Shown: positions 2,654 through 42,173 of the stretch, in pieces | Position numbering within the stretch: the stretch's first letter is position 1 | Layout: every line of letters begins with the position of its first letter | Origin: Shigella phage Sf20 | Reading direction: 5' to 3' (one strand) | Sequence record: MF327006 | DNA: 64,000 nucleotides | Translations under genes and position numbers: made by a program | Notes under the pieces: generated by a model | What the model was told of the DNA's origin: nothing | Database searches by the model: none | What the model saw: only the letters and a program-made list of their open reading frames with translations

Positions 2654-3091
2654 TTATTTGTTGATAACGATCTGATTTCGGCGAATGGTAACATTACTCT
2701 TAGAGATGATCAGATCATCCGGCACTACGTTAGTTTTGTATGGCTGGAAGCGAACAAGCATCTGATTGCGTTTAGACCCTTCCTTAATCTTGATTTCCAT
2801 CTGGATATTGTTGCCTACGTGAGCAACCGCAATTTCACCTTTATTCTCATAGACCCACTTGCTGGTAACGTCTCCTGCAAAAGCCTTAATAACTTGCAAT
2901 GCTTCGTCGTATGCGGTAGAGCTGTGAACTTTCAGAAGGCCAGCCGTAGCAAGACGGGAGCAGGTGATCGCCGGAGATTGCCAAACATCAACATTAATTT
3001 GCTCAATCAGAGTAACACCGCCCGGATCAACTGCTTTGAATGCTTCGAACATTGCCTTTTTCATTGCTACGTGGTTTTTACGGAATTTCAT
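2654..3091 (-). CDS. hypothetical protein (145 aa)
   Basis: ORF with AGAGGTGA RBS upstream, terminator downstream. Confidence 0.5.
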   Translation of the reverse strand: MKFRKNHVAMKKAMFEAFKAVDPGGVTLIEQINVDVWQSPAITCSRLATAGLLKVHSSTAYDEALQVIKAFAGDVTSKWVYENKGEIAVAHVGNNIQMEIKIKEGSKRNQMLVRFQPYKTNVVPDDLIISKSNVTIRRNQIVINK

Positions 3092-3137
3092 AATTAGTCA
3101 CCTCTATTGATTAGTTATTCAGAATATTAATTACAAA

Positions 3138-3413
3138 TCAGGACATTGCCCGTTTGAATGCGTCCATTATAACAGTGTTATTTGGCTTGTCAACACGTTT
3201 TTGAACTTTATTTTTAAATTTTTTGTTGATGTGGTGTTTACGATAAACAACCTTTTCACGGTTGGCGTAAGCCTCGCGTGCGTCTTTTACCATCAACCAT
3301 GCCTTAGCCGCATCTTGTCCGCTGATCCCGCCAATCTTCTTAGCAATATCAACAAAATTAAGACCGTGGTCTTCGCGTAGCATGTAAACCATTAACGCTG
3401 TTTTCTTGTCCAT
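3138..3413 (-). CDS. hypothetical protein with possible helix-turn-helix (91 aa from internal Met)
   Basis: Start MDKKTAL overlaps the upstream stop by 1 nt (TGATG coupling); NFVDIAKKIGGISGQDAAKAW resembles an HTH. Confidence 0.4.
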   Translation of the reverse strand: MDKKTALMVYMLREDHGLNFVDIAKKIGGISGQDAAKAWLMVKDAREAYANREKVVYRKHHINKKFKNKVQKRVDKPNNTVIMDAFKRAMS

Positions 3414-3812: not shown

Positions 3813-5039
3813 TTAAGCAGGATGCGTTTCACGAATGCATAGAACTCGCTCTAACGTATCTCGGTCCAGTTTATGTAAATCTTTGGAATGATACATGAAA
3901 CCATTGCGAGATTCCATGCAAGTGCAATCACTATATTTTTCTTCCGCTGCCGCGATTGTCTCCAGATCTTTGGCGTACTTGCTGGTAGAATAAACTTCTC
4001 GGTCACGCCACTCTAACCCAGCCTCATTGAATTTAACAATCTCGTCAAATACCCACCATCCAATGTAGATAAATGAAGTTTTGCGCCACGGGATCGGGTG
4101 TACGTAACGAAACATTTTATGAAGAGATTCAACAACTTCCATTGAACATTTTCTGCTTGTACTTGATGCAACTTCTACTGTTTCCTCTTCGATCTGTTGA
4201 TATAGTTTAGCAACACACCAGAATTTGGCTGTGTCATCGTAAGTAGCACTCTCTTTGAACAGATGACCGTCTGGCATGATAGAAAATCCTTCCTGTGCTT
4301 CGCCGACCTCACTACCGATCAGAGTCGGTGAGAGTTGCCCCTCGCGCTGCAAATACCAGTTATATTTGATCGTCAAATTAGGCATACCGCTAGAATCGCC
4401 TACAATGTCCTCTGACACAACATAATTAAGTAAAATCTCATTACCTAGTGCCACGGTCTTTGATTCCGCCACATCCTGATCTACGTTCATTGTTGCCAGC
4501 ATGATTTTAGTCGATGCGCTATCGGCTGAATCTTCCGACTCACCCCACACTTTTACAGTATACACGCCGTTTTTATCTGCTGTAAATTCTTTGATTGTAA
4601 TATTCTGTTTTGTGTCTATAACTTCTTCGCCCTTACTCCAACTATAATGTAGTTCATAGTTGTCTGCTGGAGTCTTCCCACCCGAAAATTTTACTGTTGC
4701 ATGTAATTCTACGTCTTTTTGTGATGATACGTAGAAATGCGGCGGTTCGGTGATATTTACGATTAATTCAGCTTCTTCCATGAGGAAAACGTCAGATTCT
4801 ACTGATGTCGTCGTATCGGTATCTTGTACCGTTACTTTATAGCTACCCGCATTTTCACTTGTTGCGTCTGCTACAGTTAGCGTAGCTGTGCTATTTTCAT
4901 GCGGTTGGTCGTCTTTTGTCCATGTATATGTCAAATTGCTGGGTAATGGTTCGTCACCCGTTACAGTCGCCGTTAAGGTGAAACCATCGCCAGCAAGAAA
5001 ACATCTTTTGTCAGATTTAATTGATACTGTGAAAGCCAT
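3813..5039 (-). CDS. hoc: Hoc-like head outer capsid decoration protein (Ig-like repeats plus capsid-binding C-terminus)
   Basis: C-terminal YVHPIPWRKTSFIYIGWWVFDEIVKF...ESRNGF matches the T4 Hoc capsid-binding region; N-terminal repeated Ig-like modules (TYTW, YSWSKGE). Confidence 0.8.
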   Translation of the reverse strand: MAFTVSIKSDKRCFLAGDGFTLTATVTGDEPLPSNLTYTWTKDDQPHENSTATLTVADATSENAGSYKVTVQDTDTTTSVESDVFLMEEAELIVNITEPPHFYVSSQKDVELHATVKFSGGKTPADNYELHYSWSKGEEVIDTKQNITIKEFTADKNGVYTVKVWGESEDSADSASTKIMLATMNVDQDVAESKTVALGNEILLNYVVSEDIVGDSSGMPNLTIKYNWYLQREGQLSPTLIGSEVGEAQEGFSIMPDGHLFKESATYDDTAKFWCVAKLYQQIEEETVEVASSTSRKCSMEVVESLHKMFRYVHPIPWRKTSFIYIGWWVFDEIVKFNEAGLEWRDREVYSTSKYAKDLETIAAAEEKYSDCTCMESRNGFMYHSKDLHKLDRDTLERVLCIRETHPA

Positions 5040-5208
5040 ATAAAGCCACTCCCATAGAAAATCCGAATTTAATTAATTGAAATAGTTGATTGCCATCAAC
5101 CAGATAACCATTGCGAGATTCCAATACATGAGTATTAGAATAGTGATGCAACGAGGCCGAAATAGTATCGATCTCGTCTGGGTATTTGTTCTGTTTGATG
5201 TAATACAT
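5017..5208 (-). CDS. small ORF with Hoc C-terminus-like ESRNGY motif (possible remnant)
   Basis: YYIKQNKYPDE...ESRNGYL echoes the Hoc/neighbour C-termini; no clear RBS. Confidence 0.25.
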   Translation of the reverse strand: MYYIKQNKYPDEIDTISASLHHYSNTHVLESRNGYLVDGNQLFQLIKFGFSMGVALYGFHSIN

Positions 5209-36082: not shown

Positions 36083-36301
36083 TTACTTGTTGTATTCATT
36101 CCACCATTGGGTTAGCTTATCAATTATTTTTGTGTTTCTATCCAACTTCTCCCACCGTTTTCTAGGGTTTATCAACCGGAATAGGTAAGGTGTACTTGTT
36201 AAGTGAACTCGGTCAATGTAGTGATTGATGTACTGCTTTTCGATTCTAAGTTTCATCTTTTTACGATGAAAATATGCAATGACTTGTTCTTCTGTTTCCA
36301 T
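36083..36301 (-). CDS. hypothetical protein (72 aa)
   Basis: ORF with promoter cassette upstream. Confidence 0.4.
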   Translation of the reverse strand: METEEQVIAYFHRKKMKLRIEKQYINHYIDRVHLTSTPYLFRLINPRKRWEKLDRNTKIIDKLTQWWNEYNK

Positions 36302-36402
36302 ATGTTCCTCCGTTTCGATGTGCGTATTATGCTATGGTAAGATCAGATTGTCAACACCCAATAACAAAAAAAGTCGCCACTATGGGCGACTTTGAACAAA
36401 CA

Positions 36403-36879
36403 TTAATCATGACCGTGATTTGCAATATCCGCTCGCGTCTTATCTTTGTGATTTCCTACGTCAAAGACACGATAACCATTTTCACGCAAAACTTTAATCA
36501 CTTCTGGGTTATCCTCAAAGACTCCGACAACTTCATCTTTATCAAAGGATTTAATTACCTCTAATTTGATGTGATAGTCTTTACGGGAATCGGTACGGCC
36601 TCTCATAAAGATTTTATCAAAACACACCCCGTTAGAAATCAACCAATCAATTGTTTCCATGTAAGCATGTGAACTTCGTCCGGTGAGGATGTAAATCAAA
36701 TGCCCGTTGTCGGAAAGAGCATTAATAACACGAATTACATCGTAAATGGGGGAATCTCCCCCACATGCCTTGTTATATTCGATCCATGACTCGACTTTAT
36801 CAAGATTTTCGGTTGGCATCTTTGCTAGTCGATGTGTTGGATCTGTGATTGTAAAATCTAAATCGACAAAATATATCAT
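36403..36879 (-). CDS. HAD-superfamily phosphatase-like protein
   Basis: N-terminal DxDxT motif (VDLDFTIT) and ILTGRS motif II. Confidence 0.55.
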   Translation of the reverse strand: MIYFVDLDFTITDPTHRLAKMPTENLDKVESWIEYNKACGGDSPIYDVIRVINALSDNGHLIYILTGRSSHAYMETIDWLISNGVCFDKIFMRGRTDSRKDYHIKLEVIKSFDKDEVVGVFEDNPEVIKVLRENGYRVFDVGNHKDKTRADIANHGHD

Positions 36880-38036
36880 AGATATTTCCCGAATCGGTTG
36901 TAGTCATCGTCTGTTAAATCGGTATTAACCTGAGATACCAGATACATAATCTCTACTTCCTGCGCTGCATTCTGTACTTCGTCAGAGTTCAACCATTTAC
37001 GCATCCACGGTAACGGATGACGACGAACACTAAACGGGCTTTTCAGTCCGGCAGCACGCATACGGGAATCTGCCAGGTATTCTACATAGGTTTTCAGAAT
37101 TTCCGGTGACAGGTTAGGAATTGCCCCCATTGCGAATAGGTGGTCTACCCATTCTTTTTCTTGCTCGACAACATCCAGAAAGATTTTCGTTGCTTCGCCT
37201 TCAAGTTCTTCCGCAATCTGTTTCCACTCATCACCATCAACCCCCGTTTGCCATTGACGAATAATGTATTGTGTGCCTTTTAAGTGAAGTTGTTCATCAC
37301 GCGCAATAAATTTCATGATCTTCGCGTTACCTTCCAGTAAACCACGTTCGGCAAAGCTGAAAGTACATGCAAAGGACACATAAAAACGAATTGCTTCCAG
37401 TGCATTGACGCAGTGTGCACACAGATAAATCGAAGCCATCAGATCTCGTTTTGTATCTTCAAAAAATCTTCTTGCATCATCTAATGCTGTCTGGTCGTCT
37501 CGTTCTTCCCAATAGCGGAGATCTTCTTTTGCATTCTCATACTTACGAATCCAATAAAGAACATCATCATAATATTTCCCGATAGATTCCGCTCGCTTCA
37601 TGATAGCAGGGTTATCGATGATCTGGTCGAACTCACTAGCCGGATCAATGAAACAGTTACGCATAATGTGTGTATAGCTTCGGCTATGAATCGTTTCGCT
37701 GAATGTCCATGTTTGCAACCATGTATCGAGAGTTGGATCAGATACAATTGGACCAAATGCTGCGGACGGTGCGCGACCTTGAATAGAATCAAGTAATGTC
37801 TGATACTTCAAGTTTTCAGTAAAGAAACGCTTTTCAACGTCACCCATATTAAGATATTGAATGCGGTCGGTTGCAAGTGAAATTTCTTCTGGACGCCAGA
37901 AAAATGACAATTGCTTTTCGATCAGTTCTTCAAATACTTGATGACGCTGAATATCATAGCGAGCGATACCCAACCCACTACCCAGAAACATTGGTTCGTT
38001 CATAATATCAACATGTTCGCGGTTAAATACGCTCAT
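36876..38036 (-). CDS. nrdB: ribonucleotide reductase small subunit
   Basis: Di-iron/tyrosyl radical protein architecture, size 386 aa, synteny with nrdA. Confidence 0.85.
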   Translation of the reverse strand: MSVFNREHVDIMNEPMFLGSGLGIARYDIQRHQVFEELIEKQLSFFWRPEEISLATDRIQYLNMGDVEKRFFTENLKYQTLLDSIQGRAPSAAFGPIVSDPTLDTWLQTWTFSETIHSRSYTHIMRNCFIDPASEFDQIIDNPAIMKRAESIGKYYDDVLYWIRKYENAKEDLRYWEERDDQTALDDARRFFEDTKRDLMASIYLCAHCVNALEAIRFYVSFACTFSFAERGLLEGNAKIMKFIARDEQLHLKGTQYIIRQWQTGVDGDEWKQIAEELEGEATKIFLDVVEQEKEWVDHLFAMGAIPNLSPEILKTYVEYLADSRMRAAGLKSPFSVRRHPLPWMRKWLNSDEVQNAAQEVEIMYLVSQVNTDLTDDDYNRFGKYL

Positions 38037-38050
38037 TAATTCACCTCACT

Positions 38051-38218
38051 ATCACTTTTTAACACAAAAGAACTTAGTATTTCTGTTTATTTCGTTATCC
38101 TGTTGCAATTCCTGCACGGCTTCAAAACAGCTTTGATGTGATGAAAACTCCACGCTGGTAACAGTTCCTTTATTATATGATCCTACGCTAACGGAAAGCA
38201 ATAACCATAATGTAGCCA
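38051..38218 (-). CDS. small protein MATLWLL... (55 aa), tandem paralog A
   Basis: Hydrophobic N-terminus; paralogous to 38218..38391; TAATG coupling. Confidence 0.4.
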
Positions 38219-38391
38219 TTAGTTCACCTTTTGTTTTTCAACGCAATATAGATTCATAAAGCGTTTATTGTCTTCGCGGATAATCTCGCGAGCTTTAACG
38301 CAATCCTGCTTTGTTGCAAACTCAATGATTGACATATTTCCGTAATTATACATTGAATTGCTTATTGCAATCAATAACCATACAGTAGCCA
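38218..38391 (-). CDS. small protein MATVWLL... (57 aa), tandem paralog B
   Basis: Same architecture as 38051..38218 (MATxWLL, EF, C...C). Confidence 0.4.
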
Positions 38392-38559
38392 TTATCCTAC
38401 AACCTCAAAACATTTATCATCGGGAAGAATAACCCATTCTACGCCGTATTCATCCTCAACGTAGTAGCAAGTCCCATCATATCGAGCCTCATATACATTA
38501 CCGACAACAAAGCTATCAGCTAGCTCAAAATCTACAGCAACACATTTTAATTTGGTCAT
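38392..38559 (-). CDS. small hypothetical protein (55 aa)
   Basis: Internal start MTKLK with GAGGA RBS downstream of a promoter cassette. Confidence 0.4.
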   Translation of the reverse strand: MTKLKCVAVDFELADSFVVGNVYEARYDGTCYYVEDEYGVEWVILPDDKCFEVVG

Positions 38560-38627
38560 AATAAAATCCTCACTTGTTTTTGATGGTTGTATTATAGCGG
38601 GGATTTCTCCCCGCGTCAACACTTATT

Positions 38628-40871
38628 TTACAGCTTGCAAGATGAGCACTCGCTAGCGTCTTCCGTACCATCTGCACCGTCGCGAACGTTCGCATAATAC
38701 AGGGTTTTCAGACCGTAATATTGAGCAAACAACATATCATCTAACACATCAGCAATATCGACTTTACCAGTCTTATAAGTGCTTGGATCGTATGATGTAT
38801 TGGAACTAATCGCCTGATCCACAAACTTCTGCATGATCGCTGCCAGTGTCAGATAGGGCTTGTTACCTTTCTTGATCAGTGTCCAAAGCAGGTCAATAAC
38901 ATCAGCATTATTCTCTACGTTCGGAATAACCTGATTAAATTGCCCTTCTTTCGATCCTTTAACCGATACAATCCCGCGAGGCGGTTCAATACCGTTTGTG
39001 CTGTTAGATACCTGAGAAGACGACTCACAAGGCATCAGAGCCGAAAGCGTACTATTACGAATGCCATATTTTTTCAGGTCTTCGCGCAGTTCTTCCCAAT
39101 CCATCTCATACACAGGATCAACCAGTTCATCTACTGTCTTTTTGTACCAGTCGATAGGCAGTTCACCGCGTCCATAACGTGTTTCGTGCATCAGTTCGCA
39201 AGCACCCTTCTCTTTAGCCAGTTGCACACTAGCCTTAATCAGAGCATATTGCAAGCGTTCAAACGTTTTATGCGTAAACTCGTTAGCGTCTTCATATGTG
39301 AAGAAATTATCCGCTAGATATGACGCAAAGTTAGTCACACCAACACCCAGAGAGCGACGTTTTTTGGCTGTCAGAGCTTGTTCTACAGGATAATCCTGAT
39401 AATCTAACAGGTTGTCAAGTGCACGCACCATAACCATAGCAATGCGTTCTACTTCTTCCATGTTTTCGATATCGAAATTACCTAAAACATATGCTGCCAA
39501 AGTACATAGGCTAATTTCTGAATCATCACGACCCATCGGTTTTGTAGGCAGAGCAATTTCACAACACAGGTTAGATTGTTTAATCGGTGCTACATTACGA
39601 ATAAACGCCCCGTGATTGTTCATGTTGTCTGTGAACGTTGGGTAGATTCGACCAGTGTTAAAACGTTCAATTGCCACCGCTAAAAACAGGTCTTCGGCTT
39701 TAACACGAGTTTTACGAACACTCGGATCTTTTTCCAGTTTTTCGTAAAGCTGGCGGAAACCTTCCTCATCTCGGAAGTATAGATCCCACAACAAGCCACC
39801 TGCAATATCTGGACTAAACAGAGTAATGTAATCCCGTTTAAGGAATCGCTCTACCATCAGGTTATTAATCTGTACGCCGTAGTCAAGATGGCGAATGCGG
39901 TTATCTTCCACGCCCTTATTGTTCTTTAACACAATCAGACTTTCAAACTCTAAATGCCACATTGGGTAATAGAGTGTCGCTGCCCCGCCACGAATACCGC
40001 CTTGTGAGCATGACTTAACGGCAGTCTGAAAATGTTTCCAGAATGGGATAACGCCAGTATGACGAACTTCACCATGCCCGATCTTAGATCCTTCCGCGCG
40101 AATCATGCCAGCGTTGATACCGATACCAGCACGCTTGCTAATATACTTAATGATTGCATTTGCGGTTTCATTAATACCCTGCAATGAGTCATCACTTTCA
40201 ATCACCACACACGAACTAAATTGGCGTGTTGGAGTACGCACACCCGCCATAATCGGAGTAGGCAGAGAGATTTGCTTATTCGCAACAGCATTATAAAAAT
40301 CAATCACATGTTCAAGTCGATTTTCTGTCTCTTCTTGATGCAAGCACATACCGATCAGCATATACGCAAATTGCGGTGTTTCAATGATTTTCTTAGTGCT
40401 GCGATCCTGAACAAGATATTTCTCTTTTAACTGCATCGCACCAGCATAGGTCATTTTAAAATCAAGTTTATGGTCGATGAATTTCTCCAGATATTCCACT
40501 TCTTCACGGGAATACTTTTGCAGAATTTCGCGATCATATTTTCCGGTTGCAATATTACGCTCAATATGGCTGTAAAAATCAATCGGTTGGAATTGACCGT
40601 ATACTGATTTGCGAAGCGCGAACATTGCAAGGTTACTTGCTACATATTGATAATCGGGTGTTTCTACAGTGATGTTATCTGCGGCGACCTTAATCAATAC
40701 TTTCTGGATATCATTGGTAGACATACCTTCTGTCAGAAGTGGTTCAACCATATCAAACAATTCATATGGATCAACGTTATGACCTTCGGCTGCCGCTTCC
40801 AGAATTTTCATCACTTTTTCTTTTTCAAACGGAACAGTCAGACCGGAAGACTTAACAACATTTTTAATCAT
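38628..40871 (-). CDS. nrdA: ribonucleotide reductase large subunit
   Basis: 747 aa; N-terminal ATP-cone, catalytic NLCCEI and C-terminal Cys pair CSSC. Confidence 0.9.
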   Translation of the reverse strand: MIKNVVKSSGLTVPFEKEKVMKILEAAAEGHNVDPYELFDMVEPLLTEGMSTNDIQKVLIKVAADNITVETPDYQYVASNLAMFALRKSVYGQFQPIDFYSHIERNIATGKYDREILQKYSREEVEYLEKFIDHKLDFKMTYAGAMQLKEKYLVQDRSTKKIIETPQFAYMLIGMCLHQEETENRLEHVIDFYNAVANKQISLPTPIMAGVRTPTRQFSSCVVIESDDSLQGINETANAIIKYISKRAGIGINAGMIRAEGSKIGHGEVRHTGVIPFWKHFQTAVKSCSQGGIRGGAATLYYPMWHLEFESLIVLKNNKGVEDNRIRHLDYGVQINNLMVERFLKRDYITLFSPDIAGGLLWDLYFRDEEGFRQLYEKLEKDPSVRKTRVKAEDLFLAVAIERFNTGRIYPTFTDNMNNHGAFIRNVAPIKQSNLCCEIALPTKPMGRDDSEISLCTLAAYVLGNFDIENMEEVERIAMVMVRALDNLLDYQDYPVEQALTAKKRRSLGVGVTNFASYLADNFFTYEDANEFTHKTFERLQYALIKASVQLAKEKGACELMHETRYGRGELPIDWYKKTVDELVDPVYEMDWEELREDLKKYGIRNSTLSALMPCESSSQVSNSTNGIEPPRGIVSVKGSKEGQFNQVIPNVENNADVIDLLWTLIKKGNKPYLTLAAIMQKFVDQAISSNTSYDPSTYKTGKVDIADVLDDMLFAQYYGLKTLYYANVRDGADGTEDASECSSCKL

Positions 40872-40940
40872 ATTACCTCACTTCATATTTTAGCAGGAAC
40901 AAGTTTATCCTCCATATTGGGGGCTTTCGCCCCCCTTTGT

Positions 40941-42173
40941 TTATACTGCCATTTGAGCGGTGATTGCTGGATGGCTTTGATAGTTGTGAATTTTAAAGTC
41001 TTTCGGAGTCTTTGTCAATACCTCATCTAAAGATTTAAATTCCGGCAACTCAATTGTTGGTTTATCAAACGGAACACGGCTTAACTGTTCCATAACTTGA
41101 TCAAAGTGGTTTTTGTAAATGTGAGTATCTCCACCAGAGAAAATCAGTTCTCCTACCTCAAGATCACACATTTTCGCTATGATGTGAGTTAACAGCGCAT
41201 AGCTGGCGACGTTAAAGGGCAAGCCCAAAAAGCTATCTACGCTTCTCTGAAACCACATGCAAGATAGTTTACCTTCATTGACATAGAATTGCACGAAAGG
41301 ATGACATACACCTAATACAGCATTATGTGTTCCTTGTACGTTCCATGAGTCAATGATGATACGTCGATCCGTTGGATTGTTTTTAATTTGTTCAATCACG
41401 TTTTGTAACTGGTCTTCCCAAATCTTCGGGCGATAGACATATTCTTCATCGTCTTTAGTGCTCGATGTGTCTACGTCCATACTAGCAAAGATCGTGGTAT
41501 CTGGTGCTAAAATATCCCCACCCAGATAATCACTATCAAGCAGATAACCGAAATAACCATCATCTACCCATTCCTGGAATCCCCACAAGCAATATGCATC
41601 ATTAACAAAATTAGATTGAGTCTTCCAGTGATCGGCTACTAAGAATTGATTATATTCAGAATCAAACTCTTCATAACGCATACCACGCCAGATAGCACAT
41701 AAACGGTCTTCTGTGTCATTGGTTGGCGTAAAGTCTTCTACCCACGGGTGTTTAAATGTATGTGTATATTTGCTCTTAACGCGCTTAATTTTGATTTCAC
41801 CATGTGGATGAATCGGTTTGCGTCGCCACGCCATACCATACATATTGCCGACATTATAACCATTGAATCGCAAAGGATTCTTTTCTTTCATATCAAGACA
41901 GTTGCCGCGCCAAATGTCGAAGGCTTCTTCGTCAAACTTGCCGCGTGTAATTTCTTGTAAGCGACGGCGATCAAGTGATCCCTCCATAAACCATAGCAAC
42001 TCGCCAATTACAGAGGCTGTAGCCATCTTTTTAGTGGTCAGTAAGGGGAAACCCTTGCTTAAGTCAATTCGCATTTCTGCACCGAATTTAGAGAGCGTAC
42101 CTACCCCCGTGCGGTCTTCACGAGGCCAGCCATTATCAAGAACATCACGCAACAGTTTCAAATATTCTTTCAT
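40941..42173 (-). CDS. td: thymidylate synthase with ~100-aa internal insertion
   Basis: DRTGVGTLS, DRRIIIDSWNV, CHPFVQFYV, LPFNVASYALL; extra ~100 aa between WRR and DQLQNVIEQ. Confidence 0.85.
   Translation of the reverse strand: MKEYLKLLRDVLDNGWPREDRTGVGTLSKFGAEMRIDLSKGFPLLTTKKMATASVIGELLWFMEGSLDRRRLQEITRGKFDEEAFDIWRGNCLDMKEKNPLRFNGYNVGNMYGMAWRRKPIHPHGEIKIKRVKSKYTHTFKHPWVEDFTPTNDTEDRLCAIWRGMRYEEFDSEYNQFLVADHWKTQSNFVNDAYCLWGFQEWVDDGYFGYLLDSDYLGGDILAPDTTIFASMDVDTSSTKDDEEYVYRPKIWEDQLQNVIEQIKNNPTDRRIIIDSWNVQGTHNAVLGVCHPFVQFYVNEGKLSCMWFQRSVDSFLGLPFNVASYALLTHIIAKMCDLEVGELIFSGGDTHIYKNHFDQVMEQLSRVPFDKPTIELPEFKSLDEVLTKTPKDFKIHNYQSHPAITAQMAV

Follow-up and report, generated by a model that had tools for sequence, protein, structure and literature searches.

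The closest described counterparts of the small genes considered here are in phage RB49, whose genome (RefSeq NC_005066) carries RB49p232 (NP_891803) and RB49p231 (NP_891802), both labelled "hypothetical protein". The genes had thus been annotated already and are not new. Their products fall into PHROG 5579, a protein family with no function assigned, and literature searches by locus tag, PHROG number, and the family name DUF1482 returned nothing on these genes. The Krischvirus orthologs of RB49p232 and RB49p231 occupy the same position between nrdA and nrdB, with coordinates that agree with the annotation, and we found no material difference among them. In T4 the same genomic slot reads nrdA-mobE-nrdB.1-nrdB. 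The earlier statement that T4 has a homing endonuclease at this position is thus broadly right, whereas the intron that was also placed there, the I-TevIII intron, lies inside nrdB. The T4 genes mobE and nrdB.1 share the slot but not their sequences with the small genes, as judged from a comparison with NrdB.1 and from a scan of 111 kb of T4 non-structural regions with the family profile, which found no member (best E 0.25).

The window analyzed here is the whole stretch of 64,000 nucleotides from Shigella phage Sf20 (record MF327006), and it is about 98% identical to RB49-like phages. A 1.9-kb region is 97–99% identical to RB49, Phi1, GEC-3S, and many others, and the source is a Krischvirus. 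With both strands read, the gene order on the minus strand is td, nrdA, orfA, orfB, orfC, nrdB, and a small phosphatase gene (table 1). The starts and stops of the small genes interlock: orfA and orfB share a TAATG stop/start overlap at 38392, and orfB and orfC share another at 38219. Purine-rich, Shine-Dalgarno-like sequences (GAGG/AGGA and GGTGA) precede the starts of the small ORFs, and after a gap of 15 nt behind orfC, nrdB starts behind GAGGTGA. These overlaps, together with the BLASTP comparison given below, confirm the central claim of the original prediction, that between nrdA and nrdB lie two small ORFs in tandem that are homologous and translationally coupled. The translations that it gave for the two ORFs were exact, but its coordinates were one base off. 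No plus-strand ORF of at least 30 aa overlaps the pair, no third copy of either gene is found in the 64-kb window, and an Rfam scan of 36300..41100 returned noise only, with no match to an RNA family.

Table 1. Features of the nrdA-nrdB interval and its surroundings (positions in the window)
Feature	Position	Strand	Description
td	40941..42173	-	410 aa, thymidylate synthase
nrdA	38628..40871	-	ribonucleotide reductase gene upstream of the small-gene cassette
sigma-70-type promoter (putative)	38591..38619	-	TTGACG-17 nt-TATAAT, just downstream of nrdA
orfA	38392..38559	-	55 aa, MTKLKCVAVDF..., = RB49p233; first gene of the cassette
23-nt direct repeat, upstream copy	38372..38394	-	TAATGGCTACnnTATGGTTATTG; stop of the preceding gene and codons 1-7 of orfB
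orfB	38219..38392	-	57 aa, MATVWLLIAISNSMYNYG..., = RB49p232, PHROG 5579
23-nt direct repeat, downstream copy	38199..38221	-	TAATGGCTACnnTATGGTTATTG; start of orfC
orfC	38052..38219	-	55 aa, MATLWLLLSVSVGSYNKG..., = RB49p231, PHROG 5579
nrdB	36876..38036	-	aerobic ribonucleotide reductase small subunit, per the RB49 and GEC-3S annotation
HAD phosphatase gene	36403..36879	-	158 aa; overlaps the nrdB stop; last gene of the unit
terminator-like hairpin and T-run	36370..36393	-	3' of the phosphatase gene

Several lines of evidence, well beyond what chance would give, show that orfB and orfC are genuine paralogous genes. The two products are 38% identical (69% positives, E 9e-16 in a single BLASTP comparison), and both match the PHROG 5579 profile from end to end, orfC at E 1.2e-24 (residues 2–55 on positions 1–52 of the 52-position profile) and orfB at E 2.5e-23. 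We propose that a PHROG 5579 member was duplicated in tandem long ago to give the pair. Of 58 phage records with a match to the 586-bp cassette, 54 have it in full, at 92–99% DNA identity. Substitutions in a sample of 9–11 of the Krischvirus genomes that carry it are concentrated at third codon positions, with 4, 1, and 8 variable sites at positions 1, 2, and 3 of orfB and 10, 5, and 22 in orfC, and dN/dS is 0.06 for orfB and 0.17 for orfC. Both reading frames are thus under purifying selection. Together with the ribosome-binding sites, the coupling, and the conservation across phage families, such selection indicates that both ORFs are probably translated. Conservation in related phages, the lack of which the original prediction had named as grounds for its refutation, was found: the pair is kept in Krischvirus, and homologs exist in other phage families.

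The interval varies among Krischvirus genomes in ways that bear on how much the phage depends on the pair. JSE keeps orfA and has a gene for a 215-aa homing endonuclease where orfB and orfC would be (contig L014, 2804–3451); FL15 and AV108 match only the part from the promoter to orfA, and apparently keep orfA as JSE does. All three small genes, followed by a homing endonuclease gene, precede nrdB in phiS (L015, 945 onwards) and G5211 (L020, 885 onwards). A precise deletion of 173 nt, with ends in the 23-nt repeats at the 5' ends of orfB and orfC, is seen in G37-3 (L012) and FL20 (L013), and it leaves a single hybrid gene in which MATV is joined to WLLLSVS... The hybrid copy in these two phages is evidently a product of recombination between the 23-nt repeats. 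A metagenomic sequence of 44 aa (P0017) is likewise an orfB/orfC hybrid; the helix and Cys31 are missing from it, and it is probably dead. Because JSE has a homing endonuclease gene instead of the pair, and G37-3 and FL20 keep one hybrid copy, the pair is dispensable for a viable phage and its copy number is plastic. Judged from these genomes, the Krischvirus nrdA-nrdB gap is a small hot spot in which paralogs recombine and homing endonucleases insert. Two further observations were made in the deletion-bearing genomes. The 179-aa gene upstream of nrdB in G37-3 (2679–3218) is annotated as hypothetical, at a site that is otherwise recurrent for endonuclease insertions, and orfA is disrupted in FL20 by a 2-nt deletion.

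The signals that flank the cassette are consistent with transcription as a unit. The putative promoter matches the consensus at 11 of 12 positions, and a perfect 18-nt hairpin, GCGGGGAGAAATCCCCGC (38597..38614), forms its spacer. The whole site is invariant in four Krischvirus genomes. The annotation of GEC-3S labels it a promoter and that of Makalu_003 a terminator, and because genomes annotate the site differently we suggest that it may act as both. At the other end, a terminator is annotated in GEC-3S and G37-3 at the position equivalent to the hairpin and T-run behind the phosphatase gene, and this hairpin is the probable end of a transcription unit of orfA, orfB, orfC, nrdB, and the phosphatase gene. 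Given a promoter-like site upstream and a terminator-like hairpin after the last gene, the five genes look like one early transcription unit, in which nrdB is probably co-transcribed with orfC.

Of the neighboring genes, orfA is unrelated in sequence to orfB and orfC and has a dN/dS of 0.18. It matches phrog_16302 (E 2.7e-40). A match to DUF7244, a family that a 2026 paper (PMC13164509) assigns to the SH3 clan, stays below threshold, with 21.4 of the 27 bits required. The product of the last gene matches Pfam HAD_PNKP (E 2.9e-13) and is a stand-alone PNKP-type phosphatase with no kinase domain. It is 39–43% identical to the product of a gene of T1-like Tempevirinae (L004, 2465–3004; L005, 2471–3001) that is named 'pnk' or, in phage Motto, 'putative morphogenetic protein'. 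Upstream of nrdA, td encodes 410 aa, and RB49 annotates the same length of 1233 nt. Mature T4 Td has about 286 aa, and an internal insertion of roughly 120 residues would therefore be implied.

An exhaustive profile search of 1.84 billion representatives collected 56 relatives at E ≤ 1e-3, nearly all of them 50–70 aa long, and 48 of the 56 match PHROG 5579 as well. The collected relatives extend that family by metagenomic forms of 60 aa, which are longer at the C-terminus and have an E-[RK]-F motif. Two longer sequences, P0021 (775 aa) and P0038 (351 aa), gave several profile matches each and were dropped as repetitive, low-complexity sequences whose matches are probably spurious. A word-index homolog search found Krischvirus-type sequences only, and searches of Pfam, NCBIfam, and PDB sequences with both proteins and 54–56 relatives gave nothing above noise. 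The family consensus reads M-x-x-x-T-x-W-L-L-I-x-x-S-x-G-x-Y-N-x-G-x-V-...-E-x-F-...-C-(about 18)-C-V, in which W5, L7, S11, N16, G18, and F25 are each at least 90% conserved, and the invariant cysteines are Cys31 and Cys50 in orfB and Cys31 and Cys52 in orfC. Both products share the MAT-WLL start, the EF, and the two cysteines that had been described for the two ORFs, and also Y-N-x-G.

The family reaches three phage families, with homologs in T1-like phages, T7-like phages, and metagenomes. In Drexlerviridae, the homologs of Tempevirinae (PHB17 gp10, Motto_70, Henu7, and others) lie directly after 'pnk' and overlap it, as found by tblastn against isolated phages. The Koutsourovirus SDFMU_EhYP (Autographiviridae) has an unannotated ORF of 56 aa, 47% identical, between its ATPase and DNA polymerase genes. 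Uncultured phages, large and small, have members next to genes for helicase, family A polymerase, ThyX, ligase, exonuclease, and a Pnk-like kinase. The homologs always lie within blocks of replication or nucleotide-metabolism genes, as read from the loci with gene context, since the metagenomic contigs with distant members are mostly too short to provide one. One uncultured phage contig of 176 kb (L024) holds two diverged copies, at 4559–4741 and 5001–5180, one gene apart; around these copies lie repeated small genes of the pattern MNERIKEL...FAELIV.EC...HFGVEE. A search of 185,579 bacterial and archaeal genomes for W-L-L-x-[AS]-[IV]-S-x-G-x-Y-N-x-G, with two degenerate DNA motifs, gave no match; this absence carries little weight, because the looser of the two recovers only three viral contigs. 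On the sequences collected, the family appears so far to be confined to phages.

AlphaFold2, run with an alignment of only 56 sequences as input, gave confident models for both proteins (pLDDT 89.7 and pTM 0.71 for orfB; 93.3 and 0.72 for orfC). The predicted topology of orfB is beta(5–11)-beta(20–25)-alpha(28–41)-beta(46–52), and that of orfC is the same except that the helix spans 28–39 and is followed by a short turn, with the last strand at 48–54. Both are thus predicted to be compact, soluble, intracellular beta-beta-alpha-beta mini-domains of about 55 residues, in which the WLLI N-terminus is predicted to be the first strand of the sheet and no export signal. A search of BFVD with the model returned many uncharacterized phage proteins of 50–70 aa at TM-scores of 0.7–0.85, and the predicted fold is thus a common phage mini-domain without a characterized member. 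One of the matches (TM 0.72) bears the name DUF1482 (PF07358), a family of similar size with the same predicted beta-beta-alpha-beta architecture and, like PHROG 5579, of unknown function. Membership in DUF1482 was rejected, as the window proteins have no match to it and 1 of 54 relatives matches at E 0.11, below the gathering threshold.

Among solved structures, Foldseek found generic alpha/beta matches in PDB, the best at E 1.2, and no solved relative. The periplasmic domain of MzrA (PDB 4pwu) resembles the models only in that it shares a small alpha/beta fold of a common kind, with 12% identity; ClpS, PII-like, and designed proteins score nearly as well, and MzrA, unlike orfB and orfC, has a true transmembrane anchor before its domain. 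Two phage proteins of similar length (50–60 aa), Dmd of RB69 (PDB 5i8j) and p56 of phi29/PZA (PDB 2le2, 4l5n), offer an analogy only, since their structural matches are not significant (TM 0.41–0.46, E 2.7–4.6) and there is no sequence similarity. Both are sheet-plus-helix proteins that are expressed early and bind one target protein, p56 as a dimer. Two other identities were considered and rejected. A thioredoxin- or glutaredoxin-type reductant does not fit proteins that have no CxxC, cysteines 19–21 residues apart, no Pfam match, and a predicted fold of three strands and one main helix instead of the thioredoxin fold. A homing endonuclease does not fit proteins of only 55–57 aa with no HNH or GIY-YIG Pfam domain.

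We favor the hypothesis that orfB and orfC encode small cytoplasmic binding proteins, made early, which act on a host or phage target and are possibly dimeric. We consider this account, for which Dmd and p56 serve as the model, more likely than not, and our confidence in any particular target is much lower. The two genes would be transcribed with nrdB and the HAD phosphatase gene from the sigma-70-type promoter downstream of nrdA, and the small ORFs would be translated by coupling through the TAATG overlaps. Their products would then fold into the beta-beta-alpha-beta domain, with WLLI as its first strand. Two features deduced from the predicted topology suggest how such a domain might work. 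In a beta-alpha-beta crossover, a helix starts close to where the strand after it has its C-terminal end, so that Cys31, at the helix start, and Cys50 or Cys52, in the last strand, would be neighbors and would probably be joined in a disulfide or contribute half of a shared metal site. Furthermore, because one helix can cover only one side of a three-stranded sheet and the other, hydrophobic face stays exposed, and because the near-invariant W5 and L7, two residues apart on the first strand, would lie on one side, this face may be the dimer or partner interface of homo- or heterodimers. The proteins would act by binding another protein, of the host or of the phage, which is the usual mode for phage proteins of this size. 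The role is argued by analogy because the fold searches return only generic alpha/beta matches.

The main competitor of this binding-protein hypothesis is the one that the N-terminus itself invites. The original prediction described a signal-like N-terminus and suggested that the products may be small secreted or membrane peptides, and in its strongest form this would mean a very short Sec signal or membrane anchor followed by a mature peptide of about 40 residues with one disulfide, located in the periplasm or the inner membrane and serving, for example, in superinfection exclusion or in the modulation of an envelope sensor. Behind the hydrophobic start there are indeed small residues (S-x-G/S), such as a signal peptidase site would have, and these belong to the highly conserved loop S-x-G-x-Y-N-x-G. 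The two invariant cysteines could form a disulfide, and invariant pairs of cysteines in proteins this small are more typical of disulfide-stabilized proteins outside the cytoplasm than of those within it. Sec signals have a positive n-region, a hydrophobic core of about 10–15 residues, and a freely varying sequence, and neither the window proteins nor the family show this combination. The product of orfB has a strictly hydrophobic run of 7 residues and that of orfC one of 5, and the family median is 7. The N-termini of orfB and orfC, which begin MAT, are uncharged, and the net charge before the run is 0 in 47 of the 56 members, +1 in five, and negative in four. A transmembrane helix, taken as about 19 consecutive residues with a mean Kyte-Doolittle value of at least 1.6, is found in neither protein, the maximum 19-residue mean being 0.76 for orfB and 0.81 for orfC against a family median of 0.9, and a single member of the 56 reaches 1.6. 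Conservation in the family is highest over residues 1–20 (mean entropy 1.78 against 2.63 bits), with W5 at 91%, L7 at 98%, and S11 at 91%. Cleaved signal peptides normally retain hydrophobic character only, and the conservation at the N-terminus is therefore the opposite of their pattern. In both paralogs, residues 5–11 are modeled as a strand (block pLDDT 87–90), and even the MzrA match, at only 12% identity, includes that strand in the domain. We conclude, on sequence and on the predicted structures, that the N-terminus resembles a signal peptide misleadingly, and we consider export or membrane insertion unlikely.

Hypotheses that derive a role from the neighboring genes fare less well still. 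The position between nrdA and nrdB, the probable co-transcription with nrdB, and the two invariant cysteines might suggest factors specific to ribonucleotide reductase, either a two-Cys redox partner or a subunit that assembles or regulates NrdA/NrdB. We regard this as very improbable, because homologs occur without reductase genes, in Tempevirinae, Koutsourovirus, and metagenomic phages, and because JSE keeps nrdA and nrdB and has neither small gene; the wide spacing of the cysteines, with no CxxC motif, and the lack of a family member in the T4 regions scanned argue in the same direction. A link to the stand-alone PNKP-type phosphatase, or to RNA or nucleotide-end repair more generally, with the small proteins as regulators of the enzyme or as a means against a nuclease-based defence of the host, has more in its favor. 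The phosphatase genes of Krischvirus and Tempevirinae are homologous; the Tempevirinae member directly follows and overlaps its phosphatase gene, and in Krischvirus the pair is one gene away in the same operon. In the 176-kb contig, a Pnk-like kinase (AAA_33) lies 2.5 kb upstream of the family members, as does a possibly HAD-like gene (BLASTP E 0.003 to the window phosphatase, no Pfam match). Such a phosphatase is, however, lacking within about 5 kb at the other family loci examined, JSE has the phosphatase gene but neither orfB nor orfC, and co-location in nucleotide-metabolism blocks may be incidental; the link seems to us quite improbable. That the ORFs are due to chance, or are functionless, decaying remnants, might be argued from their very short length, the lack of an annotated function, and their loss or fusion in some relatives, down to the hybrid without Cys31. 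The low dN/dS of both genes, the same invariant residues across three phage families and many metagenomes, and the confident structure predictions for both paralogs leave this reading next to no probability, and the conservation data effectively refute it.

The binding-protein hypothesis can be extended to a more specific proposal, to which we attach a low probability and which we offer as speculation. The cysteine pair of PHROG 5579 might bridge a dimer or heterodimer by a disulfide or a metal ion, and the family might be a counter-defence protein or a regulator tied to a module of PNKP-type phosphatase and end repair, with the Krischvirus pair diverged for two targets or as an obligate heterodimer.

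The genes orfB and orfC are ordinary accessory genes, already annotated as hypothetical in RB49 and dozens of relatives, and their family is catalogued. What the present analysis adds is the misleading look of a signal peptide, the reach across three phage families, the two invariant cysteines, and a confidently predicted fold without a solved relative, as well as the view of the Krischvirus nrdA-nrdB gap as a hot spot of paralog recombination and homing endonuclease insertion. If it is true that the family inhibits a host defence or regulates an enzyme of nucleotide metabolism or RNA repair, a widespread orphan family would thereby be given a name.
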